Source of the DNA: an uncultured Acidobacteriota bacterium
GTDB taxonomy: Bacteria; Acidobacteriota; Terriglobia; Acidiferrales; UBA7541
Assembly: GCA_963740695.1 (NCBI GenBank)
Contig: CAVUFU010000011.1
Span: 91,986 to 155,985, forward strand
Direction: 5' to 3'
Length of the DNA stretch: 64,000 bases
Both the position numbers and the translations under genes were made by a program. Below are positions 19,320 through 31,550 of this stretch, one piece after another; the stretch's first letter is position 1, and each line of letters opens with the position of its first letter. The notes below the pieces were generated by a model that saw only the letters and a list, made by a program, of their open reading frames with translations, searched no databases and was not told where the DNA came from.

Positions 19320-21779
19320 ATGGAAACGTCTTCCGCGCTCTTTGAGCTTGCGAGCGTGGCTTTAGCCTGTCGCGACCAGGACACTTTGCTAAAAACGTTC
19401 GCCGCGCGCGTGGGCGCCAGCCTCGGCGCGCGCGCCGTTTTTGTGTGGACGCACGCTCCGGCTTCGAACGGCTCGCAGCACAGCAACGGCGACGAATCCG
19501 AAGGTCTGATCTGCCGCATGCGCTGGAACGAACCCGGGGAGCGGCTCGCGCCACTGGGCGAATCCGTCAGCGAAGGACTCCTCGCCGAAATCTACGAATC
19601 CGCTGAAACGCGGCGGCTGGGCGGCAAAGAAGTGGCCGACGACGGCTTCGAGCATCTCGATGACGCCAGCCGCGCGCGGGTGAAATCCGCGCTGTTTGCT
19701 TCGCTGCCGGGCGCGCAAAGCGCCGAAGGCGTCGTGGAAGTGCTCAACAAGCGCAGCGGCGAATTCACCGACGAAGACGCGCATTTCCTGGAGGAAGCCA
19801 GCCGGCTGGCCGGGACCGCACTCACGAACCTCGACGCTATCGAAAGCGAGCGCCACGCCCAGCTTTCGACGCTGGAACGCCTGACAGCGCTCTACGATCT
19901 CGGCCGCACGTTCACCTCTACGCTCGAACTCGGGGAATTGCTTCCAATTGTCGCTGGCAAAATTCGCGACATCCTCGGCGCCGGGTCCTGCAATCTGTGG
20001 CTCGCAGACGCGGGCTCGCAGGAAATGTATCTCGCGCAAAAAACCGGCGAAGATCCCACTATCGAGGATGATGCGCGCGTCTCGCTCACGGAAGGCTTGC
20101 TGGCGGAAGTCGCCCAGCAAGCGAGCCCGAAACTGGTGGAAGATCCCGCTGCGGAAGCCGGCTTCGCCGAGCGCTTGAAAGCCGGCGGCGAATTCGAAAT
20201 TAGCTCGTGGATCGGCGCACCGTTGCGCAAATCCAATGAAGTGCTGGGCGTCGTCGAACTGGTCAACAAACAAGACGGTTCGTCGTTCGACGAAGACGAT
20301 TTGTTTTTTCTCGAGACCATCAGCGAACAAGCTGCGGTGGCGCTGCACAATGCCAACCTGCTGGAATCCGAGCGCAAGGTTCACGCCCTCGACGCGCTGC
20401 TGAAAATTTCGCGGGAAATCACTTCCACACTCGATCTCGATCACGTCCTCTCCACCGTGGTGCACCAAGCCTCTTCAGTGGTTCCGTTCGATCGCTGCGT
20501 GATCGGCTTCTTCGACCGCGGCCGTTTCGTCCTTGGAGCGCTGTCCGGCGAGCCTGAAGTTCCCAAGACGCGTGAGATGAGCGACTTGCGTTCACGGCTG
20601 GAGTGGGTCGCCGGGCAGGAACAAGCCGTCTCCGCGGATCTCTACGAAGACGGTTGGCGCACGAACCCGGAAGATGCTCGCGCGCAAATTGTTCCTTTCC
20701 TCGAAGAGCACGAAGAAAACGGTTTCTACGCGCTGCCCCTGCGTGATGATCAAGGCACGCTGGGCGTGATGGCGCTGCTTAGCAGCGACGCCGATTTTCT
20801 CAGCGAAAATAATCGCGAGACGGTGGCGATTCTCGCGAACCAGACCACCGTCGCGATACGCAACGCGCAGCTCTACCAGCAAGTCCCGCTTGCGAATTTG
20901 CTGCAGCCCTGGACGCAGCGCAAAAAGAAACTGATGTCGGCGGTACCGCGCGGGCGCTGGGTGGAATATGCGCAGCGCGTTGGACTCGGCCTGATATTTC
21001 TCGCAGTCGTCCCCTGGCCGATGCGCGTAGGGACGGATGCGACCGTGGTTCCCGCCGAGCGCCGTTTGGTCAGCGCGATTGATGGCGGCGTGGTGCAGCG
21101 GGTCTTCGTTCACGAAGGCGACAAAGTGCAAGCCGGTCAGGCACTCGCGCAGCTCGATGACGGCGACGATCGCGTGAAGCTGGCGCAAGCGGAATCCGCT
21201 CTCGCGCAAGCGCGCCGCGATCTGGCCGACGCGGAGTTCCGCAACGATCCTTCCGCGGCGGGGCAGGCCAAAATCCGCGCGGACCTGCACGAATCCGAGG
21301 TGCAGCTCGAACAGCAGCGCGTCGCCGAGGCGCAACTGCGTTCGCCCATCGCGGGAATGGTGATCACGCCGAAAGTGGAAGAGAAGGCCGGCACGCTGGT
21401 AAAGCCGGGCGATGCTTTTGCCGAAATTGTGGGAGAAGACCGCATGGCGGCCGAAATGAGCGTGCCGGAAGAGGATTTGGAGCTGGTGCACCCGGGAAAA
21501 AATGTCGCGCTGAAATTGAACGCGTATCCCACCACCACGTTTCAAGGCACCGTCGAACGCATCGGCGCGCAGACGAAATCCGCGGCGGGAGAACAATATT
21601 TTATCGTGCGCGCGGTTTTTGATAATCCGGGCGGGCTTGCGCGCGACGGCATGGTGGGACGCGCGCGAATTCACGCCGGTGGCGGATGGTTTAAGAGCGG
21701 ATGGTATCCGGTGGGATACACTCTTTTGCGTTCACCCTTCCGTTGGCTGTGGCAAGAAGCGTGGAGTTGGCTGCCCTAG
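19320..21779 (+). CDS. Three tandem GAF domains + TM segment + HlyD/MFP-type periplasmic adaptor domain.
   Basis: 819 aa. It has three GAF-like repeats, the latter two ending in ...VALHNANLLE / ...VAIRNAQLYQ-type helices. A TM segment follows (VGLGLIFLAVVPWP). Then come a lipoyl-like/beta-barrel MFP region (GGVVQRVFVHEGDKVQAGQALAQLDD ... SPIAGMVITP ...) and a short coiled-coil. Confidence 0.75.
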   Translation: METSSALFELASVALACRDQDTLLKTFAARVGASLGARAVFVWTHAPASNGSQHSNGDESEGLICRMRWNEPGERLAPLGESVSEGLLAEIYESAETRRLGGKEVADDGFEHLDDASRARVKSALFASLPGAQSAEGVVEVLNKRSGEFTDEDAHFLEEASRLAGTALTNLDAIESERHAQLSTLERLTALYDLGRTFTSTLELGELLPIVAGKIRDILGAGSCNLWLADAGSQEMYLAQKTGEDPTIEDDARVSLTEGLLAEVAQQASPKLVEDPAAEAGFAERLKAGGEFEISSWIGAPLRKSNEVLGVVELVNKQDGSSFDEDDLFFLETISEQAAVALHNANLLESERKVHALDALLKISREITSTLDLDHVLSTVVHQASSVVPFDRCVIGFFDRGRFVLGALSGEPEVPKTREMSDLRSRLEWVAGQEQAVSADLYEDGWRTNPEDARAQIVPFLEEHEENGFYALPLRDDQGTLGVMALLSSDADFLSENNRETVAILANQTTVAIRNAQLYQQVPLANLLQPWTQRKKKLMSAVPRGRWVEYAQRVGLGLIFLAVVPWPMRVGTDATVVPAERRLVSAIDGGVVQRVFVHEGDKVQAGQALAQLDDGDDRVKLAQAESALAQARRDLADAEFRNDPSAAGQAKIRADLHESEVQLEQQRVAEAQLRSPIAGMVITPKVEEKAGTLVKPGDAFAEIVGEDRMAAEMSVPEEDLELVHPGKNVALKLNAYPTTTFQGTVERIGAQTKSAAGEQYFIVRAVFDNPGGLARDGMVGRARIHAGGGWFKSGWYPVGYTLLRSPFRWLWQEAWSWLP

Positions 21780-21818: not shown

Positions 21819-22745
21819 ATGAAGAAATTTGCACTGGCGTTGTTGATCGTCGCAACGGCCATCTGTTGCATTGGCTGCGATAATTCGACTGGGGCGTCCA
21901 GCCCGACGCCCGCGCCGCCTCCAGCGGCCGTTGCCCCTCCTCCCGCTGCCGTTACCGCGACGGCGAAGCCCGGTGACATCCTCAGCGTCCTGACGGTAGA
22001 GCATCAGGTGGATATCACCGCGCAGCGCGATGGAGTCGTCACCTCGCTCACGAGAGACGAAGGCAGCTCCGTAAAAGCAAACGAGGTGTTAGGCCAGCTC
22101 GACGACCGCTCCTTGCAAATGGAACTCATCAAGGCCCGCGACGATCTGCAAGTGGAGGATAACAACCGCAAATACAAGGAAGCCGAGCTCAAAGCCAAGA
22201 CCGCAGCTTTCCATCGCCAGCAGCAACTTCGCGCGCTAGGGCTTTCCAGCGACGCCGATCTGGAAGCCGCCGATTTTGAAGCCAAAGCCGCGGAATACGA
22301 TTTGCACGGATACGAAGCGCTGGTGGAAAGCGGCCACGCAGAAATCAATCGCCTGGATCTGGAACTTGACCAGACTCGCATTCATGCGCCCTTCGCCGGC
22401 GTCGTCGTACGGCGCTACATCCGCGAGGGGCAAGCCATTTCCAAAGGCGACAAATGTTTTCGCGTCAGCCAGCTCGCTCCGTTGCAAGTGCAATTCCAGG
22501 TGCCGGAATCTTCCGGGCGTCGTCCCACCGCCGGCGGCACCGTGGAGCTCTCGCTCGTAGACGACTCGAATCGCGCGCTCAATGCGCGGATTATGAAAGT
22601 CAGTCCCACGGTGGACGCCGCGAGCGACAGCTATGACGTTCTGGCGCAGCTTATTGGGCCTGGCCTCACGGATTTGCGGCCGGGCATGGCCGTGCGCGTA
22701 AGTTGGCCCGGCACGGCGCAGCCCAATTCACGCCCGAAACCCTGA
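21819..22745 (+). CDS. Lipoprotein, HlyD/RND-type membrane fusion protein.
   Basis: Lipobox LLIVATAICCIGC, a Pro/Ala linker, and MFP motifs (RDGVVTSLTRDEGSSVKANEVLGQLDD; coiled-coil; IHAPFAGVVVRRYIREGQ). Confidence 0.8.
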   Translation: MKKFALALLIVATAICCIGCDNSTGASSPTPAPPPAAVAPPPAAVTATAKPGDILSVLTVEHQVDITAQRDGVVTSLTRDEGSSVKANEVLGQLDDRSLQMELIKARDDLQVEDNNRKYKEAELKAKTAAFHRQQQLRALGLSSDADLEAADFEAKAAEYDLHGYEALVESGHAEINRLDLELDQTRIHAPFAGVVVRRYIREGQAISKGDKCFRVSQLAPLQVQFQVPESSGRRPTAGGTVELSLVDDSNRALNARIMKVSPTVDAASDSYDVLAQLIGPGLTDLRPGMAVRVSWPGTAQPNSRPKP

Positions 22746-22757
22746 CGGGAACATTCA

Positions 22758-24905
22758 ATGCGTTTTGGACCCACCAGCCTGCAAGTCTCCAGCGTCGCAG
22801 CCAAGGGCTTGCGCCGCCCGAAACTGCGCGAGGATCTACGGATCAGCGAGCAGACAGTGGCGGGCGAGACTAGCTACGTCATCAAGAACTACGAGACCAA
22901 TTCCTACAATCGCTACGGCAGCACGGAGTATGAGCTGCTCAAATTGTGCGACGGCGCGCACACCGCTGCCGAAATTTCAGATGAATTGACCACGCTCCAT
23001 CCGGATTCGCCGCTCAGCGAAGCCGAGGTGCTCGATTTCCTCGACAGCATCGAGCCCGCGATGTGGGAACGTTCGGTGGGCGAGAAGAATCTGGCAGTGC
23101 TCGAACGCATTCGCGACGAGCGCAAGGGCCGCGTCGATCAATCCAGCGTGCTGTATATCAGTTTCAAGGCTTGGGACCCCGACAAGACGCTCGCGAAAAT
23201 TGATCCCTACTTGAGCTGGATGTTCACATCCGGGTTTGTCGTTTTCTCGCTTTTCATATTCGTCATCGCCTGCTACCTGTTGGCCGGCGATTGGGCGCGC
23301 GTGCAACAGGATACTTCCGCGCTCTACAACTTTTCGGATAAGAGCGCCTACGACATCTGGATGTTCTGGATCCTGCTGATGATTCTTGGAGGGATCCACG
23401 AATTCGGGCACGGGCTCACCTGCAAGCACTTCGGTGGCGACGTGCACCAGATGGGATTTCTGCTGATTTATTTCACGCCCGCCTTCTACACGGACACCAC
23501 GGACATCCTTCTCTTCAAACGCGGCTCACAGCGCCAGTGGGTGATCTTCGCCGGCATCTGGATCGAATTGGTGCTGTGCGGGCTTTCGGGAGTGGTGTGG
23601 CACTTCTCGGCCGCCGGTTCGGTGCTGAACGACCTGGCCTATAAAATGATGCTGCTCAGCGGCATTCAAGGCGCGTTATTAAACTTGAATCCGCTGATCA
23701 AAGCGGACGGCTACTACGCGCTTTCGCAATTCCTGCAGGTGGACAACCTGCGCGAGGATTCTTTCGCATTTCTCCGCGCGTGGGCAGAGAAATATCTGCT
23801 GCGCCATGACATCGACTTGCCCGCGGCCAGCAAACGCCAGCGCCGCATCTTCTTTCTCTTCGGCGTCGCCGCCATCATTTACAGCACGTCGCTGTTGATC
23901 CTGGTTCTGACCTTTGCGAACAACGTTCTGGTGTCCAAGCTCGGAGATTGGTGGGGCGCACTGGCGACTCTGGGCGTGGTCTATTTCTTCACGCGGAAAG
24001 GAATCCGGCAGGTTTGGCCGCCCACGCTGGCCTGGCTGCGCCAGAAACGGGAGGACTACATGGCTTGGAAAATGACGCGCACGCAACAAGCGGGAGCGTT
24101 GGGCGTCGCGCTGCTGCTCCTTCTGCCGCCCGTAGGTTCCAGTGTCTCCACTCCTCTGGTGCTCGAACCGGGGCGAACCGCGCACGTTCACGCTGAAGTG
24201 CCCGGTCAAATCGCAAATGTCTACATTCAACAGGGTCAAACCGTTCAAGCCGGACAGGTGCTCGCCATCCTGCGCAACCCTGAAATCGAAGCGGACGCCG
24301 CCATTCTTCGCGAGCAACTTGCCCTGGCCAGTAGCGACCTGCGCAACGGGCAGGATCGCTCGGACTATGAAAAGGCCGCCGGCGCGGTGCGCGATCGCAA
24401 GCGTCTTCAAGAGGAATTCTCGGTTGCCGAAAATCGCGTCGCGGCGCTGCAGATTCGCGCACCGATGGATGGCGTTATTGCCACCGCCGGTGTGAGCCAA
24501 CGCGCCGGCGCGTTTCTTGACGCCGGCGATGAACTAACCACCGTAGTGGACCGCAGCACGATGAAAGCCCGCATCCTGGTTCGCGATTGGGACCTGGAGG
24601 ACGTTCATCCCGGCGCCGCAGCGAAAGCGAAAGTGATTCCGTTTCCGTACCGCACGTATAGCGGCAAAGTGGATCAAATCCTCCCGGCAGCAGCAGCCGA
24701 TCGCCCCGTCTCCGAGACGCAAGACCTGCAGCGCCTCGGCCAGCAGCTCACCAATTACTTTGCCGTGGACATGGAATTCGCCAATCCGGACGGCTCGTTG
24801 CGCGAGGGAATGACTGGGACGGCGAAAATCGCCGGCAAGAGGTCCTCGATAGCCCACCAGGTAGCCAGGGCCACCTCGCGCTGGATTCACGCACAGTTCT
24901 GGTAG
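22758..24905 (+). CDS. Fusion protein: PqqD-like (RRE-type) N-terminal domain + M50 site-2-protease membrane domain + HlyD/MFP C-terminal domain.
   Basis: 715 aa. The N-terminus YVIKNYETNSYNRYGSTEYELLKLCDGAHTAAEISDELTTLHP...EVLDFLDSI matches the PqqD pattern by eye. HExxH is at IHEFGHGLTCKHFGG and the second M50 motif at NLNPLIKADGYY. The C-terminus is MFP-like (VPGQIANVYIQQGQTVQAGQVLAIL ... APMDGVIAT ...). Confidence 0.75.
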   Translation: MRFGPTSLQVSSVAAKGLRRPKLREDLRISEQTVAGETSYVIKNYETNSYNRYGSTEYELLKLCDGAHTAAEISDELTTLHPDSPLSEAEVLDFLDSIEPAMWERSVGEKNLAVLERIRDERKGRVDQSSVLYISFKAWDPDKTLAKIDPYLSWMFTSGFVVFSLFIFVIACYLLAGDWARVQQDTSALYNFSDKSAYDIWMFWILLMILGGIHEFGHGLTCKHFGGDVHQMGFLLIYFTPAFYTDTTDILLFKRGSQRQWVIFAGIWIELVLCGLSGVVWHFSAAGSVLNDLAYKMMLLSGIQGALLNLNPLIKADGYYALSQFLQVDNLREDSFAFLRAWAEKYLLRHDIDLPAASKRQRRIFFLFGVAAIIYSTSLLILVLTFANNVLVSKLGDWWGALATLGVVYFFTRKGIRQVWPPTLAWLRQKREDYMAWKMTRTQQAGALGVALLLLLPPVGSSVSTPLVLEPGRTAHVHAEVPGQIANVYIQQGQTVQAGQVLAILRNPEIEADAAILREQLALASSDLRNGQDRSDYEKAAGAVRDRKRLQEEFSVAENRVAALQIRAPMDGVIATAGVSQRAGAFLDAGDELTTVVDRSTMKARILVRDWDLEDVHPGAAAKAKVIPFPYRTYSGKVDQILPAAAADRPVSETQDLQRLGQQLTNYFAVDMEFANPDGSLREGMTGTAKIAGKRSSIAHQVARATSRWIHAQFW

Positions 24906-24932
24906 CGCGCCACGAACCCCTGGGGATTGGTG

Positions 24933-24972
24933 CAGAAAAAAGGGAAAGAGCCGCCGTTCCTGGGACGGCGGC
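24933..24972 (-). terminator. Intrinsic terminator for micropeptide gene 1 (possibly bidirectional).
   Basis: Perfect 8-bp GC stem GCCGCCGT (24950..24957) / ACGGCGGC (24965..24972). On the minus strand it is followed by TCTTTCCCTTTTTTCT. Confidence 0.6.
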
Positions 24973-25037
24973 CCTTTGGGGGTGCTGCTACTGCAATCCT
25001 CGGCAGGCTGGACCTAACCGGAGGAACTTGTTAAATC

Positions 25038-25145
25038 TTACTGGAACCTGATCAAGGGCTTAATGCCCGGCAGGTCGGCGCGCTTCATCAACGGCTTTAC
25101 GTTACCGGTCTTCTTGCCCTTCACTGGCTTGGCATTCTTGGCCAT
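25038..25145 (-). CDS. Lys-rich micropeptide 1 (35 aa): MAKNAKPVKGKKTGNVKPLMKRADLPGIKPLIRFQ.
   Basis: Hand translation. SD AAGGGAGA lies 7 nt before the ATG (25145). It shares MAK...KK-x3-(T/V)KPL(M/L) with peptides 2 and 3. It is below the size cut-off of the ORF track. Confidence 0.55.
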   Translation of the reverse strand: MAKNAKPVKGKKTGNVKPLMKRADLPGIKPLIRFQ

Positions 25146-25196
25146 GATCCAATCTCCCTTGATCTTGTGTTTGTAACGCCGGCTCTGCAAACTCTT

Positions 25197-25232
25197 GAAA
25201 AGGGCCGCCCCTCGACGGCATCAGCCCTTTTC
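25197..25232 (-). other. Stem-loop between micropeptide genes 2 and 1 (terminator or attenuator candidate).
   Basis: Perfect 9-bp arms GAAAAGGGC (25197..25205) / GCCCTTTTC (25224..25232). There is no clean U-tract after it. Confidence 0.35.
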
Positions 25233-25306
25233 CAGGCTGAAACTTTGCAACGCCCTCACACCGCGTTCCTGAAACAACGCCGGTTGCCGAGCGTCGCAGT
25301 GGGAAC

Positions 25307-25384
25307 TTACCTCTTGCCGACCGGAACCATCAACGGCTTCGTCGCTTCGATCTTCTTTGCCTTCTTCAAGGTCTTCTTTGCCAT
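25307..25384 (-). CDS. Lys-rich micropeptide 2 (25 aa): MAKKTLKKAKKIEATKPLMVPVGKR.
   Basis: It forms the C-terminal part of the listed 114-aa ORF 25307..25651. SD GAGGGGGA lies 6 nt before the internal ATG at 25384, and a sigma54 promoter lies 49 nt upstream. It differs from peptide 3 in the first 18 codons by 4 synonymous third-position changes and 4 replacements. Confidence 0.65.
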   Translation of the reverse strand: MAKKTLKKAKKIEATKPLMVPVGKR

Positions 25385-25432
25385 TTTTGTTCCCCCTCGT
25401 TTGATTCGCCCATTGGGCGTCGCCGCAGTAGT

Positions 25433-25449
25433 ATGCAACGCTATCACCA
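25433..25449 (-). promoter_or_regulatory. Sigma54 (-24/-12) promoter for micropeptide 2.
   Basis: The minus strand reads TGGTGATAGCGTTGCAT, with GG-N10-GC spacing exactly as in the consensus TGGCAC-N5-TTGCA/T. Confidence 0.7.
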
Positions 25450-25559
25450 AACTCGGCGGCCTCCCGCAATCCTGCAAGGCCCTATTTTTGTTGCAGATGG
25501 CGTCCCAGCATTCATGCGCGTTCTCGATCAGGGCCTTTCTCGCGTTGAAATAATCACCG

Positions 25560-25579
25560 CCTGTTGAAAATTTCAACGG
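25560..25579. promoter_or_regulatory. Palindromic upstream activator site (enhancer B).
   Basis: GTTGAAA-a-TTTCAAC has perfect 7-bp arms (25563..25577). Its centre is about 129 nt upstream of the sigma54 promoter at 25433..25449. Confidence 0.6.
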
Positions 25580-25670
25580 AGCCGCCCCCCGCGGCACCAC
25601 ATCGCGCGCGCTGCTGCCCGCCAGTCGAAGATCTCGAATTGCCAGACCCACGGGAGGAATCGAGAAGGGG

Positions 25671-25715
25671 AAGCAAAAAACAAAAGGGCCGCCAGCCTCG
25701 CGGCGGCAGCCCTTT
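25671..25715 (-). terminator. Intrinsic terminator for micropeptide gene 3.
   Basis: Long GC-rich stem (AAAGGGCCGCC ... GGCGGCAGCCCTTT), followed on the minus strand by TGTTTTTTGCTT. Confidence 0.65.
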
Positions 25716-25785
25716 CATCATCTAATTCTGGCCGGCTGGCGCGCCCTACCTCGCGACAGGCGCGCGCAAGCCCCCGATAGGGTCA

Positions 25786-25863
25786 CTACTTATACGCGAT
25801 TGCTTTCAGCAACGGCTTGGTCGGGTTGATCTTCTTCGATTTCTTCAAGGTTTTCTTGGCCAT
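25786..25863 (-). CDS. Lys-rich micropeptide 3 (25 aa): MAKKTLKKSKKINPTKPLLKAIAYK.
   Basis: Hand translation. SD TGGGAGA lies 5 nt before the ATG (25863), a sigma54 promoter lies 47 nt upstream, and a terminator lies about 70 nt downstream. Confidence 0.65.
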   Translation of the reverse strand: MAKKTLKKSKKINPTKPLLKAIAYK

Positions 25864-25909
25864 GTTGTTCTCCCACACTTGATTTGCCCGGCTGGGCATG
25901 ACGACTTAT

Positions 25910-25926
25910 ATGCAAAGTCGTCGCCA
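25910..25926 (-). promoter_or_regulatory. Sigma54 (-24/-12) promoter for micropeptide 3.
   Basis: The minus strand reads TGGCGACGACTTTGCAT, with GG-N10-GC spacing. The flanks align with the promoter at 25433..25449 (TTTGG(C/T)GA...TTGCATA). Confidence 0.7.
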
Positions 25927-26039
25927 AAGTCCAGGCGCATCGCGCCGCGCTCCAACTGCCGCCTTTTGCTGCACATGGCATTCGCACCCGGTCGCGGCGC
26001 TGTCGGCCAGCCGCGCGGCCGCATTGAATTACTCATCAA

Positions 26040-26058
26040 CCGTTGATATTTTCAACGG
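26040..26058. promoter_or_regulatory. Palindromic upstream activator site (enhancer A).
   Basis: The plus strand reads CCGTTGATATTTTCAACGG (minus strand CCGTTGAAAATATCAACGG). Arms match 8 of 9. It has the same core as the site at 25560..25579. Its centre is about 131 nt upstream of the promoter at 25910..25926, and it overlaps the stop codon of the second SET gene. Confidence 0.6.
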
Positions 26059-26546
26059 CGCCTTCGGCTGCGCCGGCCATTGATCGTGCCGCGGCAGCTA
26101 GCCGCACCACAACGGCACGGAATCTGTTCCGCGTCGGGATGAAACCGATAGTCCAGAGTCAATTCTTCCCCTTTCGTTATCGTCCGGCGGCTGAACAACA
26201 GCATGCGGCCTCGCGCCCGGCGGTACGCAAGATTGGGGTCGCAACAGTGATTGATCAGTTGAGCTCCGTTTCCACCTACGGCTCCATTGATGACCCAGCG
26301 CTTGTTGAGACTCGCCAGATAAACCGGCGTGTGCAGTGAAGACTTCCAGTGCCGGTTGTGGGCTTGCAGTACTCGGCTGTACGGCACAAGCTCACCGGTG
26401 TACTCGATCACCTTGTGCCGCGCAGGAATCGCTTCTTCGGCGAATACGCCCCAGCGATGTATGGGCGACCGCCGGACCTTCAGCCGGTAGCGGGACGCTC
26501 CCGGAGCGATGGACCTGCGCACCGGTGATTGCTTACGAGCTGGCAT
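26052..26546 (-). CDS. SET-domain protein-lysine methyltransferase-like protein (copy B).
   Basis: RYRLKVRRSPIHRWGVFA..., LINHCCDPN (the NHSCxPN motif), GEELTLDYRF (catalytic Tyr context) and post-SET CRCGAASCRGT. I prefer the ATG at 26546 (MPARKQSP...) by analogy with copy A. That ATG lies 2 nt after the copy A stop (TAA-cg-ATG). Confidence 0.85.
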   Translation of the reverse strand: MPARKQSPVRRSIAPGASRYRLKVRRSPIHRWGVFAEEAIPARHKVIEYTGELVPYSRVLQAHNRHWKSSLHTPVYLASLNKRWVINGAVGGNGAQLINHCCDPNLAYRRARGRMLLFSRRTITKGEELTLDYRFHPDAEQIPCRCGAASCRGTINGRRSRRRR

Positions 26547-26548
26547 CG

Positions 26549-27004
26549 TTAATTCAAAATGACCCGGAGCGTGCCGCGGCACCGGCGCTCTCCGCAACGA
26601 CAGGGGATCCGTCGGATTTTGACCGCGTAGCGGTAACTCACGGTCAGTTCTTCGCCAGAACGAATTTTCCGGAGGCTACATAAGTAAAGCCGGCTGCGGA
26701 CGCATCGCCACATCAAATTGGGCCGGCATGAATGGTTGATGAACTGAGCGCCGCTTCCGCCCGATCTGCCGTCCACGCACCAGGTGGAATTCATCGCGGC
26801 GATGTAGATATCGTTCGGGGGGTTGATCCTCGCGGCGTCTCCGTAAGTGAGGCGTTTTCCGGTGTATTCGATCACGCGGCGGTGGCGCGGAATCTCCTCA
26901 AGCGCAAAGACGCCGTAGCGATGCAGCGTGGAATGCGCGACCCGCAGCCGGTAGCGAGCCGCCTTCGGATTGATCTGGCGCGACTTGGGGCTGGATGCTT
27001 TCAT
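26549..27004 (-). CDS. SET-domain protein-lysine methyltransferase-like protein (copy A).
   Basis: RYRLRVAHSTLHRYGVFA..., FINHSCRPN, GEELTVSYRY and post-SET CRCGERRCRGT. Confidence 0.85.
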   Translation of the reverse strand: MKASSPKSRQINPKAARYRLRVAHSTLHRYGVFALEEIPRHRRVIEYTGKRLTYGDAARINPPNDIYIAAMNSTWCVDGRSGGSGAQFINHSCRPNLMWRCVRSRLYLCSLRKIRSGEELTVSYRYAVKIRRIPCRCGERRCRGTLRVILN

Positions 27005-27096: not shown

Positions 27097-28449
27097 TCAC
27101 AAATTATATTTGCGGCAGAGGTAATTCAGCCGGTTGCGGTCCACACCCAACAGGTTCGCCGCGTCCGCCTTCACGTGCTTGGCCTGCTCCAGCGCCTCCT
27201 CAATCCAGCGCCGTTCGAAGGCCTCGATTTCTCGGTCCAATTTGATGCCTGTGGACGGCAGCCGGAACCGCCCACGCGCGTCACGGCCGACGGACTGCAC
27301 GATTTCCGCCGGCAGATCCTTCAGGGTGATGGCGTCGCCGTCGGTCATGATCACCAGGCGCTGAATCGCGTTCTCCAGTTCGCGAACGTTCCCCGGCCAC
27401 GGATAGCGTTTCAGTGCCAGCATGGCGTCGTCGGCGATCTGCTTCGCGGGAAACCCGTTCGCCGCGGAATACACGCTCACGAAATAATCTGCCAGCACCG
27501 GAATATCTTCCACCCGTTCGCGCAGCGCCGGAACGAATATAGGCACCACGTGAATCCGGTAATAAAGGTCCTCGCGGAATCGGTCCTGCCGCACCATCTC
27601 TTCCAAGTCTTCGTTCGTCGCGCTCACGAGCCGAAAATCCACGCGGATGGATTTTTTCCCGCCGAGGCGCGTCAGCGAACGGTCCTCCAGCACCCGCAGC
27701 AATTTGCTCTGCAGCGCCGGCGTGAGCGTCGCAATTTCATCCAAAAATAGTGTCCCTTGGTGCGCCAGCTCGATGCGGCCTTCTTTCATCGCGACGGCGC
27801 CGGTAAACGCGCCGCGCTCGTAGCCGAAAAGCTCCGCCTCCATCAATCCTTCCGGCAGCGCGGCGCAATTCACGCCGATGAACGCCCGGCTGCGCCGCGG
27901 ACTCTGCTCATGCAGCGCGCGCGCCACCAATTCTTTCCCGACGCCGCTTTCCCCGCGGATGATCACGTTAGTCGTCGCGCGGGCCATCCGCTTGATCGAA
28001 TCGAAGACGTGGCGCATGGCGTCCGTAGCGCCGATCAAATCTCCCAGCGTATTTTTGCGGCTGATTTCGTCGCGCAGGATGCGATTCTCTCGCTGGATGT
28101 GGAGTTTTTCGATGGCGCGCTCGAGCAACAGCCGCAGCACGTCCGTATCAATCGGCTGAATGAAATAATCGTAGCAGCCCGCGTCAATCACTTTCAGCGC
28201 CGTGGATTTCGTCTGATCGGTGCTCAGAACGATCACCAGCGTGTCGATGTCTCCGCACGCGAGGCGGCTCAGCATCTCCGTGCATTCGCGCAGTCCGCCG
28301 GATTCCATCGGCAGCGCAAGGAGCAGCACGTCCAGGCTCGCTTCCTGCAAGAGCCGGTAAGCAGTCTCGTAGTCCTCGCCCTCGATTACCTCAAAATCCG
28401 AACGCAGCTTCGCCACGATGCTCGCGCGCATGGCCGCGTCATCATCCAC
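27097..28449 (-). CDS. Sigma54-dependent transcriptional activator (NtrC family): receiver-like domain + AAA+ domain + Fis-type HTH.
   Basis: Walker A GESGVGKE, the GAFTGA loop (ERGAFTGAV) and a C-terminal HTH (AANLLGVDRNRLNYLCRKYNL). The receiver is degenerate (see findings). The listed start is GTG. The frame stays open upstream (AKIAI-VDDD) with only ATT/ATA codons there, so the start is uncertain. Confidence 0.88.
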   Translation of the reverse strand: MDDDAAMRASIVAKLRSDFEVIEGEDYETAYRLLQEASLDVLLLALPMESGGLRECTEMLSRLACGDIDTLVIVLSTDQTKSTALKVIDAGCYDYFIQPIDTDVLRLLLERAIEKLHIQRENRILRDEISRKNTLGDLIGATDAMRHVFDSIKRMARATTNVIIRGESGVGKELVARALHEQSPRRSRAFIGVNCAALPEGLMEAELFGYERGAFTGAVAMKEGRIELAHQGTLFLDEIATLTPALQSKLLRVLEDRSLTRLGGKKSIRVDFRLVSATNEDLEEMVRQDRFREDLYYRIHVVPIFVPALRERVEDIPVLADYFVSVYSAANGFPAKQIADDAMLALKRYPWPGNVRELENAIQRLVIMTDGDAITLKDLPAEIVQSVGRDARGRFRLPSTGIKLDREIEAFERRWIEEALEQAKHVKADAANLLGVDRNRLNYLCRKYNL

Positions 28450-28671
28450 TATGGCAATTTTTGCTCTGGGAGCCCCGGGTGCGATGAGCCATCTCCAGTG
28501 CGAACACGGCCGTTTCGCACAAAGCGTGAAGTTAAATCCGATCCCGCGTTGCCGAGATTTTAGGTGCCCACCGTCCGCATGTCAACGCCGCAAGCGCGTC
28601 TTTCGCCGCAAAGTCGCTGTGAAGCAGTACAATTTCGCAGGCCCGTAACCGCCTTGGAGTAGCGCGGCAAT

Positions 28672-29220
28672 ATGACGTCTGAACCCGGATCGCAGCCGTC
28701 TGCGATGCACACCAGGCGCGTCCTGGCTCTCGTCGGGACGGGAGTCTTTCTCGTTCTGGCACCTGGTTTCTTGGTTGTCCTCGTCCCTTTTTGGATCTCC
28801 CGCTGGGGGATTCAACCGCCGCTTCTGGGATTCATGGCGTTTCGCATACTTGGCGTCGTGTTGATGGCCGCGGCCTTGCCTGTATTGCTCGAATCATTCG
28901 CGCGCTTTGCGCTGCAGGGGCTTGGCACGCCGGCGCCCATATTCCCGACGCAACATTTGATCGTGAAAGGCTTCTATCGGTACGTGCGCAATCCCATGTA
29001 TGTCGCGGTCGTATCGATGGTGCTCGGACAAGGCCTTTTCTTCGGCAACCCGCAGGTGCTCGTCTACGGCTTTATTGCGTGGCTGGGCACATTCTTGTTT
29101 GTGCTCAGCTATGAGGAGCCCACACTCCGCAGAACCTTCGGCGCTGAATATGAGACGTATCGCGCGAACGTGCCACGGTGGATTCCGCGCCTTACGCCTT
29201 GGCGCAGCAGCACGAATTGA
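28672..29220 (+). CDS. Isoprenylcysteine carboxyl methyltransferase (ICMT/PEMT)-family membrane methyltransferase.
   Basis: TM-rich protein with LIVKGFYRYVRNPMYVAVV...EEPTLRRTFGAEYETYRANVPRWIP, the typical ICMT-family C-terminal motif. Confidence 0.65.
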   Translation: MTSEPGSQPSAMHTRRVLALVGTGVFLVLAPGFLVVLVPFWISRWGIQPPLLGFMAFRILGVVLMAAALPVLLESFARFALQGLGTPAPIFPTQHLIVKGFYRYVRNPMYVAVVSMVLGQGLFFGNPQVLVYGFIAWLGTFLFVLSYEEPTLRRTFGAEYETYRANVPRWIPRLTPWRSSTN

Positions 29221-29404
29221 GATTGTATCTACAGACCTAACGCCCGATCGTCTCATTCATGCCCGTTCTGACGCCAGGCGGCCCACGCAACTTTCGACCC
29301 GGATGAGTGTTTAATAGGGTGGAAGAAGACGGACGATGACAGTAGAAATCGTCTGAATGCAGTGAGTTACAGAGAGGCTTCATCGGCTCGGAAGGGGCCC
29401 AATT

Positions 29405-29920
29405 ATGAGATACACCAAGTACTTCATGATTTTCGCTTTATTCGGACTTTGCTTAGCGATCGCGCCGAACGCGCATGCGCAACGCGTTGTCGTCGGCGTG
29501 GGAGTCGGACCTGGGTACGTGGATCCAGCTCCCGTCTGCGCTTACGGATACTATGGATATTACCCGTACGCTTGCGCACCCTACGGCTACTATGGCCCTA
29601 GCTGGTTCTCCGGCGGCCTATTCATTGGCGCCGGCCCGTGGTATCGCGGCGGCTATTGGGGTCGCTCCGGATACTGGGGACGTCCTGGATGGGGCGGGTA
29701 CGGCGGCCACGGTTACTACGGCGGTCATGGCTACTACGGCGGCCGCGGATATGTAGGACACGGTGAGGTTGGCGGCGGTTACCGCGGCGGCAGCGCCTAT
29801 CGCGGTGGCAACAGCTTCCACGGCGGCGGTAGCTTTCACGGAAGCGCCTCTCACGGTGGGGAGGGTTTCCACGGAGGTGGCGGCGGCCACGGCGGCGGCC
29901 ACGGTGGCGGCCACAGGTAA
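29405..29920 (+). CDS. Secreted low-complexity Gly/Tyr/His-rich protein.
   Basis: Sec signal peptide (FALFGLCLAIAPNAHA). It is followed by YGYYGYYPY, GGYWGRSGYWGRPGWGGYGGHGYYGGHGYYGG and a C-terminal HGGGGGHGGGHGGGH tail. Confidence 0.7.
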   Translation: MRYTKYFMIFALFGLCLAIAPNAHAQRVVVGVGVGPGYVDPAPVCAYGYYGYYPYACAPYGYYGPSWFSGGLFIGAGPWYRGGYWGRSGYWGRPGWGGYGGHGYYGGHGYYGGRGYVGHGEVGGGYRGGSAYRGGNSFHGGGSFHGSASHGGEGFHGGGGGHGGGHGGGHR

Positions 29921-29946
29921 GTTCGACCTCGCGGTAAAAATTAAGC

Positions 29947-29982
29947 GGCCGGCAGCGAAAACTGTCGGCCGTTTCGTTTTTT
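29947..29982 (+). terminator. Intrinsic terminator after the Gly/Tyr-rich gene.
   Basis: GGCCGGCAG-cgaaaa-CTGTCGGCC stem (8 of 9 bp), followed by GTTTCGTTTTTT. Confidence 0.6.
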
Positions 29983-30140
29983 GAACCCCACAAGTTTTAC
30001 TGACTTCGCATCATTTGTGCCCCTAGCAATTTGCCTGAGCTTCCGTGAAACGAACTGCGCGTAAGTTGCACTATCCATCAAGCGAACATACCGAGCAGTC
30101 GGCCCTACCTCCCCGGCGAAAGACGAGATTGGAGAAGACC

Positions 30141-31550
30141 ATGAAAAGCGCAATCAGCCGCCGTGATTTTTTGGGTGCCACAGCAGGAGCAGCAGCTTCG
30201 GCAACTCTTCTCGGGATTTCATTTTTGGATGCGCTTCCCGCACAAGCCGCGTCTTCCTTCGTGCGGCGTGACGTGGGAGGCATGAGCGCGACGGACCCGG
30301 TGCTCGTATCGTACGGGAAGGCCGTCCAGGCGATGCAAGCGCTGCCCGATGCGAATCCGCTGAGCTGGGCCTACCAGGCAGCGATTCACGGCACGACACT
30401 ATCGGGCAGCAACACGGCTTGGGATACCTGCCAACACGGGAACTATTTCTTCTGGTCGTGGCACCGCATGTACCTCTATTGGTTCGAACGGATCATCCGC
30501 AAGATGGCCGACGACCCGTGTTGGACCTTGCCCTACTGGAATTATACTTCGGCGGCCGAGCGGACCCTCCCGCCGCCGTTTCGCGACGCTACAAGCCCGC
30601 TCTTTACGTCTAACCGCGGCGCCGGGTGGAATACGGGTGCGGCTTCCTTTCCATCAGGGGACGTGCAATATTCGGCGGCCTTGTCGCTCTCGAATTTCAC
30701 GAACGGCAGCAGCTCCATCGAGCAATCCCCACATAACAACGTTCACGTGGACATCGGAGGATGGATGGGCGTGGTGGACATGGCGGCGCAGGACCCGATT
30801 TTCTTCGTTCACCACAGCAATATCGATCGCTTGTGGGATATTTGGCTGGCACAGACTCCCGGAGCCGGCGACCCAGTGGGCGACGCGACATGGAAGAGCA
30901 AGCAATTTACATTCTTCGATGAGAACGGAAACCAGGTGCAGATGACCGGCTGCGAGGTATTGCGCGCTCAACAGCAGCTGGGCTACAGCTACGAGGGTGA
31001 GCCTGCCCAAGTGAGCCCGAAGTGCCTGCTAATCGTCCTGCCGCCCTGGCTGTTCACCGAAGAAGTCTTCGCGCAGCTGCCAGGCCCGCCTGTGGAGTTG
31101 ACCGGCGAGACGGTGTCCTTCCCTATCAATCTCGCCGAACTCAGGAAACGTATTGCTCCCGTACTCGAAGACAAGAACAAGACAATCTTTCTACAGCTGG
31201 ATGACGTGGAGACGGAGAATCCGCCGGGCGTGGTGTGGGATGTATTCGTTGGATTGCCCGAGAAGGGCGCGCCCGATACCGAAAGCCCTTACTTTGTGGG
31301 TAGCTTGGCGATGTTTGGTCCCGGGATTCGGACTTCAAAACATCATAACGCGCCCGCACACTTCCGTTTCGCGATCAACCGCGCTCTTTCGGCGGCGATG
31401 AGGAACGAATCGGAACGCACTGCGGTGACGTTCATTCCCCACGGCGTGTTGATCGAGGGGAAACCTTCACGGCCCGAAGTGAAGTCGCCGGTTCGCATCG
31501 GAAAAGCCTCGCTGATCGTGGAGACGAAAGAAGAAAACAAGAAGCAATAG
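30141..31550 (+). CDS. TAT-exported tyrosinase/polyphenol oxidase (type-3 copper) with a C-terminal extension domain.
   Basis: Twin-arginine signal MKSAISRRDFLGATAG. CuA region HGNYFFWSWHRMYLYWFE. CuB region PHNNVHVDIGG...DPIFFVHHSNIDRLWDIW. I prefer the ATG at 30141 (SD ggagaag) over the ORF-track start at 30045. Confidence 0.88.
   Translation: MKSAISRRDFLGATAGAAASATLLGISFLDALPAQAASSFVRRDVGGMSATDPVLVSYGKAVQAMQALPDANPLSWAYQAAIHGTTLSGSNTAWDTCQHGNYFFWSWHRMYLYWFERIIRKMADDPCWTLPYWNYTSAAERTLPPPFRDATSPLFTSNRGAGWNTGAASFPSGDVQYSAALSLSNFTNGSSSIEQSPHNNVHVDIGGWMGVVDMAAQDPIFFVHHSNIDRLWDIWLAQTPGAGDPVGDATWKSKQFTFFDENGNQVQMTGCEVLRAQQQLGYSYEGEPAQVSPKCLLIVLPPWLFTEEVFAQLPGPPVELTGETVSFPINLAELRKRIAPVLEDKNKTIFLQLDDVETENPPGVVWDVFVGLPEKGAPDTESPYFVGSLAMFGPGIRTSKHHNAPAHFRFAINRALSAAMRNESERTAVTFIPHGVLIEGKPSRPEVKSPVRIGKASLIVETKEENKKQ

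Follow-up and report, generated by a model that had tools for sequence, protein, structure and literature searches.

Two adjacent SET-domain genes and a linked family of lysine-rich micropeptide genes in an uncultured Acidobacteriota bacterium

Overall features of the locus

A 64,000-nt stretch of DNA (hereafter the window) from an uncultured Acidobacteriota bacterium of the order Acidiferrales (assembly GCA_963740695.1, contig CAVUFU010000011.1, positions 91,986 to 155,985 of the forward strand) contains two back-to-back genes for small SET-domain proteins, designated SET-A and SET-B, which lie beside genes for Lys-rich micropeptides. The association of SET genes with such micropeptide genes is conserved well beyond the window. 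We consider it fairly probable that the neighbouring micropeptides are the substrate of the SET proteins, at one or the other of two candidate sites, with a Lys in the variable C-terminal tail of the peptides carrying the larger share of this expectation. The chances appear about even that the SETs are optional Lys-methylating tailoring enzymes of a sigma54-induced micropeptide system resembling those of the RiPPs, i.e. ribosomally made, post-translationally modified peptides. All coordinates given below are positions in the window, and SET-A, SET-B, the micropeptide genes, and the gene for a sigma54 activator are all located on the minus strand.

In the proposed mechanism, the activator would bind palindromic elements and fire a sigma54 promoter located before each peptide gene. 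In each peptide, a Lys-rich leader of conserved sequence that terminates in TKPL would be followed by a short core of hypervariable sequence at the C-terminus, and the cytoplasmic SETs would use S-adenosylmethionine to methylate the epsilon-amino groups of Lys residues in the peptides, most likely that of the tail Lys. The products of a convergent operon, namely a PqqD-like/M50/HlyD fusion protein, a second HlyD protein, and a GAF-HlyD protein, would then remove the leader and export the product. In its complete form, in which SET-A and SET-B would be the first bacterial SET enzymes that tailor RiPPs, N-epsilon-methylating sigma54-induced leader peptides that are subsequently trimmed and exported by the PqqD-like/M50/HlyD protein, this proposal is put forward tentatively and is somewhat doubtful. 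The integrity of the genes, their motifs, predicted fold, purifying selection, and synteny, and the conservation of promoters, palindromes, and peptides are observations, from which methyltransferase activity, the peptide substrate, the target Lys, cleavage, and export are inferred.

Sequence features and integrity of SET-A and SET-B

SET-A (26549-27004, minus strand; 151 aa, ATG start) comprises a minimal SET domain with a shortened SET-I region and a post-SET motif, and SET-B (26052-26546, minus strand; 164 aa) comprises a SET domain with a full-length SET-I region, a post-SET motif, and a basic C-terminal tail. Both are predicted Lys methyltransferases, belonging to clades A and B, respectively. 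For SET-B, a TTG-started open reading frame (ORF) of 181 aa (26052-26597) and a public gene call of 176 aa represent alternative starts. The two proteins share 45% identity and score 68.4 (SET-A) and 66.1 bits (SET-B) against the Pfam SET model (PF00856), far above the cutoff of 22.4 bits. A preliminary description, made from the letters of the window alone, had pointed out two back-to-back SET genes joined by TAA-cg-ATG, and the ORFs confirm this arrangement: the stop codon of SET-A is followed after 2 nt by the ATG of SET-B. The same stop-2 nt-start spacing is kept in all three other genomes that carry both genes (TGAccATG in loci L002 and L006 and TGAtcGTG in L001), which is consistent with translational coupling of SET-A and SET-B.

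The motifs expected of SET enzymes are present in both proteins: VIEYTG (with the conserved Tyr) in the two alike; NHSCRPN, EELTVSYRY, and the post-SET sequence PCRCGERRCRG in SET-A; and NHCCDPN, EELTLDYRF, and PCRCGAASCRG in SET-B. In the clade alignment, N90, H91, C93, E119, L120, and T121 are invariant, and the post-SET Cys columns (CxCx4C plus the Cys of NHxC), which are predicted to form a zinc cluster, are invariant or nearly so. The ratios of nonsynonymous to synonymous substitution rates (dN/dS), calculated with the orthologues in L001, L002, L006, and L003, are 0.16-0.22 for SET-A and 0.13-0.15 for SET-B at dS values of 0.46-1.0; thus, both genes are under purifying selection. A chance origin of the two reading frames is implausible because of the E-value of 1e-18 per domain, the dN/dS values of 0.13-0.22, and the hundreds of homologues, and the dN/dS of 0.13-0.15 together with the intactness of all motifs rules out that SET-B is a decaying copy. 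The N-terminus of SET-A, KSRQINPKAARY, was also considered as a peptide-like pseudo-substrate, but this idea was rejected because its I-x-P segment is a conserved feature of every SET clade, even of those that have no peptide linkage.

The best sequence matches in the PDB were the SET domains of KMT2B/KMT2A for SET-A (E 3.5e-16) and yeast Set1 for SET-B (E 2.4e-24). AlphaFold2 (AF2) models had mean pLDDT confidence values of 70.5 for SET-A, whose model is thus of moderate quality only, and 82.7 for SET-B. In Foldseek searches, the models matched the SET domains of MLL1, MLL2, SETD2, and G9a with a probability of 1.00 and TM scores of 0.6-0.75; the top matches of SET-A were to the MLL1 SET domain, and SET-B gave TM scores of 0.70-0.75 to the SET domains of MLL1 and MLL2. 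The predicted fold of both proteins is, according to these models, KMT2/Set1-like. The likeness to KMT2/Set1 proteins (MLL, COMPASS) extends to the NHxCxPN, ELTxDY, and post-SET CxCx4C motifs and to the protein end shortly after the post-SET motif. In contrast to these enzymes, SET-A and SET-B have no N-SET region, WIN motif, or WDR5/RbBP5/ASH2L partners, and their bacterial host has no histone H3. At 151 and 164 aa and with a SET domain only, they resemble COMPASS-type H3K4 methyltransferases in the catalytic core and are not members of that class. The complete SET and post-SET motifs, the predicted fold, and the purifying selection agree with the earlier impression that both proteins look catalytically competent, and it is very probable that both are active SET Lys methyltransferases.

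The two proteins differ in the SET-I region. SET-B can be aligned with Set1 through the SET-I insert with a single one-residue gap, and the SET-I region of SET-A is ~7 residues shorter than that of SET-B. In solved SET complexes, the substrate groove is bordered by SET-I, so SET-A and SET-B may read their substrates differently. At the position of the product-specificity Tyr of MLL1 (Y3942), the alignment places Val in SET-A and, by homology with SET-A, Leu in SET-B; the degree of methylation is not predictable from Val or Leu at this aligned position.

As the closest solved structures are eukaryotic H3K4 methyltransferases and a weak match to the NCBIfam model for LegAS4 was obtained (E 1e-3), the SETs might be taken for secreted nucleomodulin effectors that methylate the histones of a eukaryotic host, like LegAS4/RomA of Legionella, NUE of Chlamydia, and BtSET of Burkholderia. 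However, the score against the LegAS4 model (T4SS_AnkI) is 18 bits versus a cutoff of 550 bits, and no signal peptide, ankyrin repeats, or extra domains were seen by eye (no predictor was run) in the proteins of 151 and 164 aa. Furthermore, no secretion-system gene was found among the scanned neighbours, and the family is widespread, with conserved chromosomal synteny, in metagenome-assembled genomes (MAGs) of Acidobacteriota from soil and peat. An effector role is thus extremely improbable.

Linkage between SET and micropeptide genes

The linkage was analysed from both sides. Among 80 SET-seeded genome loci, 36 carry one to five micropeptide genes beside the SET gene. Two arrangements were found: the order activator-SET-peptides, hereafter the main locus, in the window and among L001-L026, L065, and L081-L084, and the order peptide-SET in minimal modules (L009, L010, L017, L021, and L030), in which a search of the flanks detected no activator or M50-HlyD match near the SET gene. 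The peptide-SET order was also observed on two short peptide-seeded contigs (L125 and L161). The adjacency occurs in three SET clades, namely A, B, and a third, Terriglobales-type clade containing P0142, L071, and L052. SET genes of the third clade are sometimes flanked by transposase genes and are preceded by sigma54-driven genes for Lys-rich peptides in which TKTL, TMPL, or VRTL replaces TKPL (L206:4777-4860, L071:7626-7872, and L052:8683-8916); an example is the peptide MAAKKPTKKLKKAKKVPNVRTLMKFMK, encoded behind a TGGCAC-N5-GTGCA promoter. The pairing was found in MAGs labelled as Acidobacteriota, Vulcanimicrobiota, Verrucomicrobiia, Limnocylindrales, and Methylomirabilota, labels in which binning errors are possible. 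The link between the SETs and Lys-rich micropeptides proposed in the preliminary description is therefore real and conserved, the opposite of a SET pair whose relatives stand without linked Lys-rich ORFs.

For the view from the peptide side, metagenomes were scanned with a degenerate DNA pattern for KKxKK[LIVMF]xxTKP[LF], which is unbiased as to SET. About one-third of the matches were chance occurrences inside longer ORFs and were filtered out, leaving 82 bona fide micropeptide loci. A SET gene is present in 15 of these loci, in 7 of the 35 with at least 1 kb on both sides, and in 2 of the 14 with at least 3 kb. Seven loci (L106, L117, L126, L167, L176, L194, and L198) contain the full set of activator and M50-HlyD genes without SET, indicating that the peptide system does not need SET, and many peptide genes are orphans that still bear a sigma54 cassette. 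A universal SET-peptide linkage can thus be discarded, as most peptide loci are devoid of SET and one SET clade, which is linked to malate dehydrogenase genes (see below), is devoid of such peptides. Nevertheless, for a gene family with roughly one member per genome, being adjacent in 15-20% of the loci is a very high frequency. Linkage that is almost complete from the SET side in three clades and confined to a minority of loci from the peptide side is the pattern expected of an optional tailoring enzyme, and SET is an accessory of the peptide system rather than part of its core.

The micropeptide family

Three micropeptide genes were identified in the window. The genes pep1 (25786-25863, minus strand; MAKKTLKKSKKINPTKPLLKAIAYK) and pep2 (25307-25384, minus strand; MAKKTLKKAKKIEATKPLMVPVGKR) each encode 25 aa, and pep3 (25038-25145, minus strand; MAKNAKPVKGKKTGNVKPLMKRADLPGIKPLIRFQ) encodes 35 aa, is conserved over its full length, and contains two KPL motifs. 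Unlike pep1 and pep2, pep3 always adjoins the M50-HlyD gene and has no clear sigma54 cassette; it is a candidate substrate, decoy, or accessory factor.

Family members are peptides of 22-45 aa with a single core. Their N-terminal part, MAKKTLKK[AS]KK[IL]xxTKPL (leader sequence, MAKKTLKKAKKIEATKPL), is conserved, the first ~18 residues being nearly constant, and K-P-L is the only invariant tripeptide; the tails of 3-30 residues are hypervariable. This combination of a conserved N-terminal part and a variable tail corresponds to the leader/core pattern of RiPP precursors in general. A peptide profile search recovered 617 database members, all of which are 'hypothetical' or unnamed except for one labelled Hcp by JGI, and none has a recorded Pfam domain. 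Likewise, no family of Pfam or NCBIfam was matched by the three peptides of the window. The fetched loci contain about 180 peptide genes, several per locus. In the codons of 144 distinct copies, third positions (and the first positions of Leu codons) vary freely while the amino acids are fixed; such silent variation indicates that the genes are translated. The possibility that they are non-coding RNAs or chance ORFs is contradicted by this third-position variation and by the conserved Shine-Dalgarno sequences and promoters. In the public gene calls on a contig with the corresponding region (ENA ERZ25039548, contig_39945; L205:3531-4677, equivalent to 25307-25863 of the window), pep3 and a spurious 82-aa ORF are annotated and pep1 and pep2 are missed. 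Because 25-aa genes are missed in this way, the family is under-represented in protein databases.

Some long tails (...DISITKSIDKSSPS and ...NLSITKVLDKTSPTL; L066:7480-7617 and P0312) match an internal segment of Hcp, the tube protein of type VI secretion, at a sub-threshold level (Pfam T6SS_HCP, E 0.002-0.003, profile positions 36-66); the member labelled Hcp by JGI is one of these peptides.

Sigma54 cassettes and the activator

Each gene of the pep1 or pep2 type has its own upstream cassette, which comprises a palindrome (GCGTTGAAATTnTCAAC) accompanied by another site (TGAnTAATTCAAC) at ~195 nt before the start, a sigma54-type promoter (TTTGGCGAnnGCTTTGCATATAA) at ~65 nt before it, a small GCCC...GGGC hairpin, and a Shine-Dalgarno sequence (GAGGGAGAA). 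The promoter consensus is conserved in at least 80% of the aligned loci. A strict sigma54 match 65-75 nt upstream of the start was found for 103 of 174 peptide genes and in 9 of 1190 control windows, and the palindrome was found upstream of 108 of the 174 genes and in 35 of the 1190 control windows; enrichment of the sigma54 promoter and palindrome over the controls was >20-fold.

In the window, the first activator-type element (26024-26058, no strand assigned) consists of the palindrome CCGTTGATATTTTCAACGG (26040-26058) and the site TTGAATTACTCATC (26024-26037) and is conserved upstream of peptide genes. Its palindrome contains the stop codon of SET-B (26052-26054), an overlap that had been noticed in the preliminary description and was found to be correct. 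Promoter 1 (TGGCGACGACTTTGCA; 25911-25926, minus strand) shows the GG-N10-GC spacing of sigma54-type promoters, and pep1 is followed by a terminator-like hairpin (25688-25707, minus strand). The second activator-type element (25543-25579, no strand assigned), comprising the palindrome GTTGAAAATTTCAACGG (25563-25579) and the site CGTTGAAATAATCA (25543-25556), and sigma54-type promoter 2 (TGGTGATAGCGTTGCA; 25434-25449, minus strand) precede pep2. Another terminator-like hairpin (24945-24977, minus strand) closes the peptide region between the convergent genes. In the region 24900-26060, the whole cassette is tandemly duplicated with a period of ~479 bp and 82% identity over the peptide-coding part, and between two and five cassettes are found in relatives, suggesting that they are often gained and lost.

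Upstream of SET-A lies a gene for a sigma54 enhancer-binding protein (27097-28449, minus strand; Pfam Sigma54_activat, E 1e-68; Response_reg, E 3e-9; HTH_8, E 1e-7), referred to here as the activator. It consists of a receiver-like N-terminal domain, an AAA+ sigma54-interaction domain, and a Fis-type helix-turn-helix domain and is syntenic with SET in ~30 loci. The gap between the activator gene and SET-A is 92 nt, and a terminator scan found no terminator-like site in between; the SETs are probably co-transcribed with the activator. A sigma70-like match (TTGACA-17-TAAAAT; 28557-28585, minus strand) lies upstream of the activator gene. With 11 of 12 positions matched, it is the sole match in the region, where 1.2 would be expected by chance, and constitutes weak evidence for a promoter of an activator-SET-A-SET-B operon. 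In the receiver-like domain (DVLLLALPMESGG), Ala was seen by eye at the position where the phospho-acceptor Asp of NtrC-type receivers is expected, and the same holds for L013. This substitution suggests that phosphorylation has no part in controlling the activator.

SET genes of the main locus directly follow the activator gene, which they sometimes overlap, and do not stand behind a sigma54 promoter. This position would also fit a target other than the peptides, namely a cellular protein such as the activator, sigma54, a nucleoid-associated or ribosomal protein, or the M50-HlyD protein, and the location of the SETs would in that case be a sign of regulatory coupling. Those characterised prokaryotic SETs that have endogenous targets do act on DNA-binding proteins, as cpnSET does on Hc1 and Go1-SET on MC1-alpha (PMC3980110). 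Moreover, non-peptide contexts exist within the phylum: a separate acidobacterial SET clade, found in MAGs of Bryobacterales and Solibacteraceae, lies directly downstream of the malate dehydrogenase gene in 26 loci (within L035-L080, e.g. L073:7012-8423), and no Lys-rich micropeptides were found near the SET genes in those 26 loci. On the other hand, it is the peptide gene and not the activator gene that stays adjacent to SET in the five minimal modules, and the tail composition of the peptides co-varies with the presence of SET (see below). A cellular target is unlikely, although to be taken seriously.

Putative processing and export genes

Convergent to the peptide genes are three genes on the plus strand. 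The first (22758-24905) encodes a 715-aa fusion protein with a PqqD-like N-terminus, an M50 intramembrane metalloprotease domain, and a C-terminal HlyD adaptor domain (Pfam HlyD and Peptidase_M50), in which the M50 motifs HEFGH and NPLIKADG are intact; it is syntenic in ~30 loci. The second and third encode an HlyD/RND-type membrane-fusion adaptor of 308 aa (21819-22745) and an 819-aa protein in which three GAF domains are combined with an HlyD adaptor domain (19320-21779). The best NCBIfam matches of the 715-aa protein were to daptide_HExxH (E 5e-53; 180.6 bits, for a cutoff of 300) and to the model of the epipeptide RiPP protease YydH/LiaK (E 1e-12), both of which fell short of the respective cutoffs, and 9 of 10 orthologues matched PqqD over residues 40-103 with E-values of 1e-4 to 3e-3, all below the Pfam cutoff. 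By these matches, the M50 protein resembles the RiPP leader peptidases that depend on a RiPP recognition element (RRE).

The candidate target lysine

The two candidate sites in the peptides are the Lys of TKPL, together with other Lys residues of the leader, and the Lys residues of the tail. In the peptide-seeded sample, tails containing Lys were found in 20 of 23 SET-adjacent peptides versus 14 of 30 from SET-less loci (Fisher p = 0.0035), and over all loci in 66 of 74 with SET versus 14 of 30 without (p = 1e-5), in counts that are not phylogenetically corrected. The tails contain 15.5% Lys and 5.5% Arg in the presence of SET versus 8.0% Lys and 10.5% Arg in its absence. Tail Lys residues are often located at or beside the C-terminus (...GKR, ...YK, ...GKK, and ...WK). 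These data argue moderately for the tail Lys as the methylation target.

Methylation of the invariant TKPL Lys or of other leader Lys residues would have a different meaning, as it would gate recognition, cleavage, or export by the M50-HlyD protein or tune the charge of an unprocessed cationic peptide. SET enzymes typically read the residues flanking the target Lys, and a site within the sole invariant tripeptide, which is present twice in pep3, would suit such reading; moreover, some SET-linked peptides have no tail Lys (e.g. the tails TTIPR, MVPRG, and TVAIGRR). However, TKPL is equally invariant in the SET-less majority, indicating that its conservation is imposed by something else, such as a protease or a recognition domain, and two of the third-clade variants (TKTL, TMPL, and VRTL) have no Lys at this position. 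In addition, it is the tail Lys and not the leader Lys that co-varies with the presence of SET. A recognition or cleavage step shared by all loci offers the better explanation for the conservation of TKPL, and we consider leader methylation a minor and rather unlikely contender.

Several points weigh against the SETs being tailoring enzymes of peptides that are then trimmed and exported. Besides the scarcity of SET in peptide-seeded loci, the complete loci devoid of SET, and the position of main-locus SETs behind the activator gene, these are the missing phylogenetic correction of the tail-Lys counts, the SET-linked peptides without tail Lys, and the sub-cutoff scores of the protease and PqqD-like domains. 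Finally, the ORFs scanned at 12-40 kb of the window did not reveal any ABC, RND, or TolC protein as a partner of the HlyD adaptors.

Distribution and origin of the two SET lineages

A scan of 185,579 species-representative genomes, one per species, yielded 428 relatives, and at least 3461 homologues of SET-B are present in the protein database. Named homologues are from 'Candidatus Acidiferrales bacterium' (Acidobacteriota, Terriglobia). The view that bacterial SET proteins are uncommon, voiced in the preliminary description, thus does not apply to this lineage. The public 176-aa call mentioned above, P0121, is 100% identical to SET-B and is located on contig_39945 of ENA ERZ25039548, where the local gene order is the same as in the window. 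This metagenome contig of 1.3 Mb is presumably the source of the window DNA or nearly identical to it.

SET-B is 50-57% identical to many single-copy acidobacterial SETs versus 45% to SET-A, and a neighbour-joining tree built with 108 SETs shows a clear separation of clades A and B. On the grounds of this separation and of the closer relationship of SET-B to other acidobacterial SETs, a recent tandem duplication was rejected. The earlier notion of a paralogous pair needs correcting, in that the identities and the tree place the two in separate old clades instead of pointing to a simple duplication; by sequence, the pair represents the co-residence of two old SET lineages.

The syntenic block shared by main loci contains the activator gene, a SET slot, the peptide genes, and then the convergent genes for the M50-HlyD, HlyD, and GAF-HlyD proteins. 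The SET slot is occupied by A only (L003 and L011-L026), B only (L065 and L081-L084), A and B (the window, L001, L002, and L006), or two A-type copies (L004 and L005), and the same peptide sets are found in A-only, B-only, and A+B loci. Further double SETs were identified in L102 (A+A') and L030 (peptide-SET-peptide-SET) and in a third double-SET lineage, in which the two are encoded by adjacent ORFs (L031, L108, L129, and L143) or fused into one ORF (L032, 335 aa; L034, 317 aa). The N-terminal domain of this third lineage is altered in the catalytic-Tyr region (ELTAYFSHP), unlike SET-A and SET-B. In the manner of a Rosetta-stone argument, the fused proteins hint that joint action of two SET modules is possible, though in that other lineage.

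These arrangements bear on the suggestion that SET-A and SET-B form a heterodimer. Among minimal SET enzymes, the viral vSET functions as a dimer, the stop-2 nt-start junction kept in all four A+B genomes favours equimolar synthesis, and tandem pairs recur independently (A+A' in L004, L005, and L102 and the adjacent and fused pairs of the third lineage). However, because A and B each occur alone in syntenic relatives with the same peptide set, each enzyme appears to work without the other, and the fused pairs come from a different lineage with an altered N-terminal domain. This suggestion is weakened by these findings, and an obligate heterodimer is improbable. SET-A and SET-B probably divide the work, acting on different peptides, on different Lys residues, or to different degrees of methylation, or are partly redundant.

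Comparison with known systems

The characterised bacterial and archaeal SETs methylate either host histones (NUE, LegAS4/RomA, BtSET, and BaSET) or endogenous chromatin proteins (PMC3980110). Chlamydia cpnSET (targets Hc1/Hc2) and Methanosarcina Go1-SET (target MC1-alpha) are, like SET-A and SET-B, small stand-alone SETs, and their targets are Lys-rich basic proteins of their own cells (PMC3980110). In contrast to the present locus, with sigma54-driven micropeptides next door, the targets of these two enzymes are chromatin proteins and no linkage to protease or exporter genes has been described for them.

A SET enzyme acting on a ribosomal peptide is known from the fungus Epichloe festucae, in which GigC dimethylates the core Lys of epichloecyclins; its deletion leads to the accumulation of desmethyl peptides, and the core Lys is conserved even in clusters without a methyltransferase (PMC10540207). 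In a 2024 review of RiPP methyltransferases, the fungal epichloecyclins are the single example of Lys side-chain N-methylation (PMC11285071). In both GigC clusters and the loci described here, a SET gene adjoins a ribosomal-peptide gene and the methyltransferase is optional among clusters. However, GigC is eukaryotic and belongs to a system with a multi-repeat precursor with a signal peptide, kexin processing, and DUF3328 cyclisation, none of which is present here, and the loci described here involve sigma54 control, single-core peptides of 22-45 aa, and an M50/HlyD machine. The two are likened by their putative role, and GigC is the only precedent found for a SET enzyme acting on a ribosomal peptide.

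In daptide biosynthesis, the RRE-fused M50 peptidase MpaP removes the leader (bioRxiv 10.1101/2023.03.08.531785). The present locus is similar in that a PqqD-like domain precedes an M50 domain in the 715-aa protein and several short precursors with a conserved leader are encoded nearby, and differs in the additional C-terminal HlyD domain and the SET tailoring enzyme. No daptide decarboxylase, aminotransferase, or Rossmann methyltransferase genes and none of the MpaB/C/D/M enzymes were found among the scanned neighbouring genes; together with the sub-cutoff protease score, this sets the locus apart from daptide clusters.

In the literature searched, we found no bacterial counterpart for Lys methylation of RiPPs by SET enzymes, no description of these micropeptides, and no report of the combination of SET, a sigma54 activator, and a PqqD-like/M50/HlyD protein. 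Thus, the SET family and the principle of a SET enzyme acting on a ribosomal peptide (in one fungal case) are already known, and what seems to be new is the occurrence in bacteria, the mode of regulation, the family of peptides, and the partners for export.

Ever since SET proteins turned up in bacteria that are not pathogens, it has been asked what they do in free-living species. The present locus offers a concrete and synthesisable candidate substrate that is encoded <200 bp from the enzyme and conserved with SET across three clades. It also draws attention to a large unannotated peptide family, with >600 database members and no Pfam or NCBIfam model, that is often missed by gene callers, and the A-only, B-only, A+B, A+A', and fused double-SET loci constitute a natural experiment on the division of work among paralogous methyltransferases. 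If the micropeptides are indeed methylated, they would represent a new and widespread class of methyl-Lys peptide natural products or signals in soil Acidobacteriota and a native substrate for SETs of free-living bacteria, possibly a prokaryotic analogue of the relationship between SET enzymes and histone tails. The interest of the finding lies more in the peptide linkage, which has been strengthened, than in the gene pair, for which the heterodimer idea has lost ground.

Genes divergent from the activator

On the plus strand, divergent from the activator gene, the region 28672-31550 encodes a membrane methyltransferase of the PEMT/ICMT family (28672-29220; Pfam PEMT, E 5e-14), a Gly/Tyr/His-rich protein of 171 aa whose hydrophobic N-terminus resembles a signal sequence in appearance, and a tyrosinase. 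These genes are syntenic in the closest relatives, and for the methyltransferase gene synteny is limited to them; membership of the methyltransferase in the SET-micropeptide system is peripheral and uncertain. The three genes could provide further tailoring or cross-linking functions or represent an unrelated neighbouring module.

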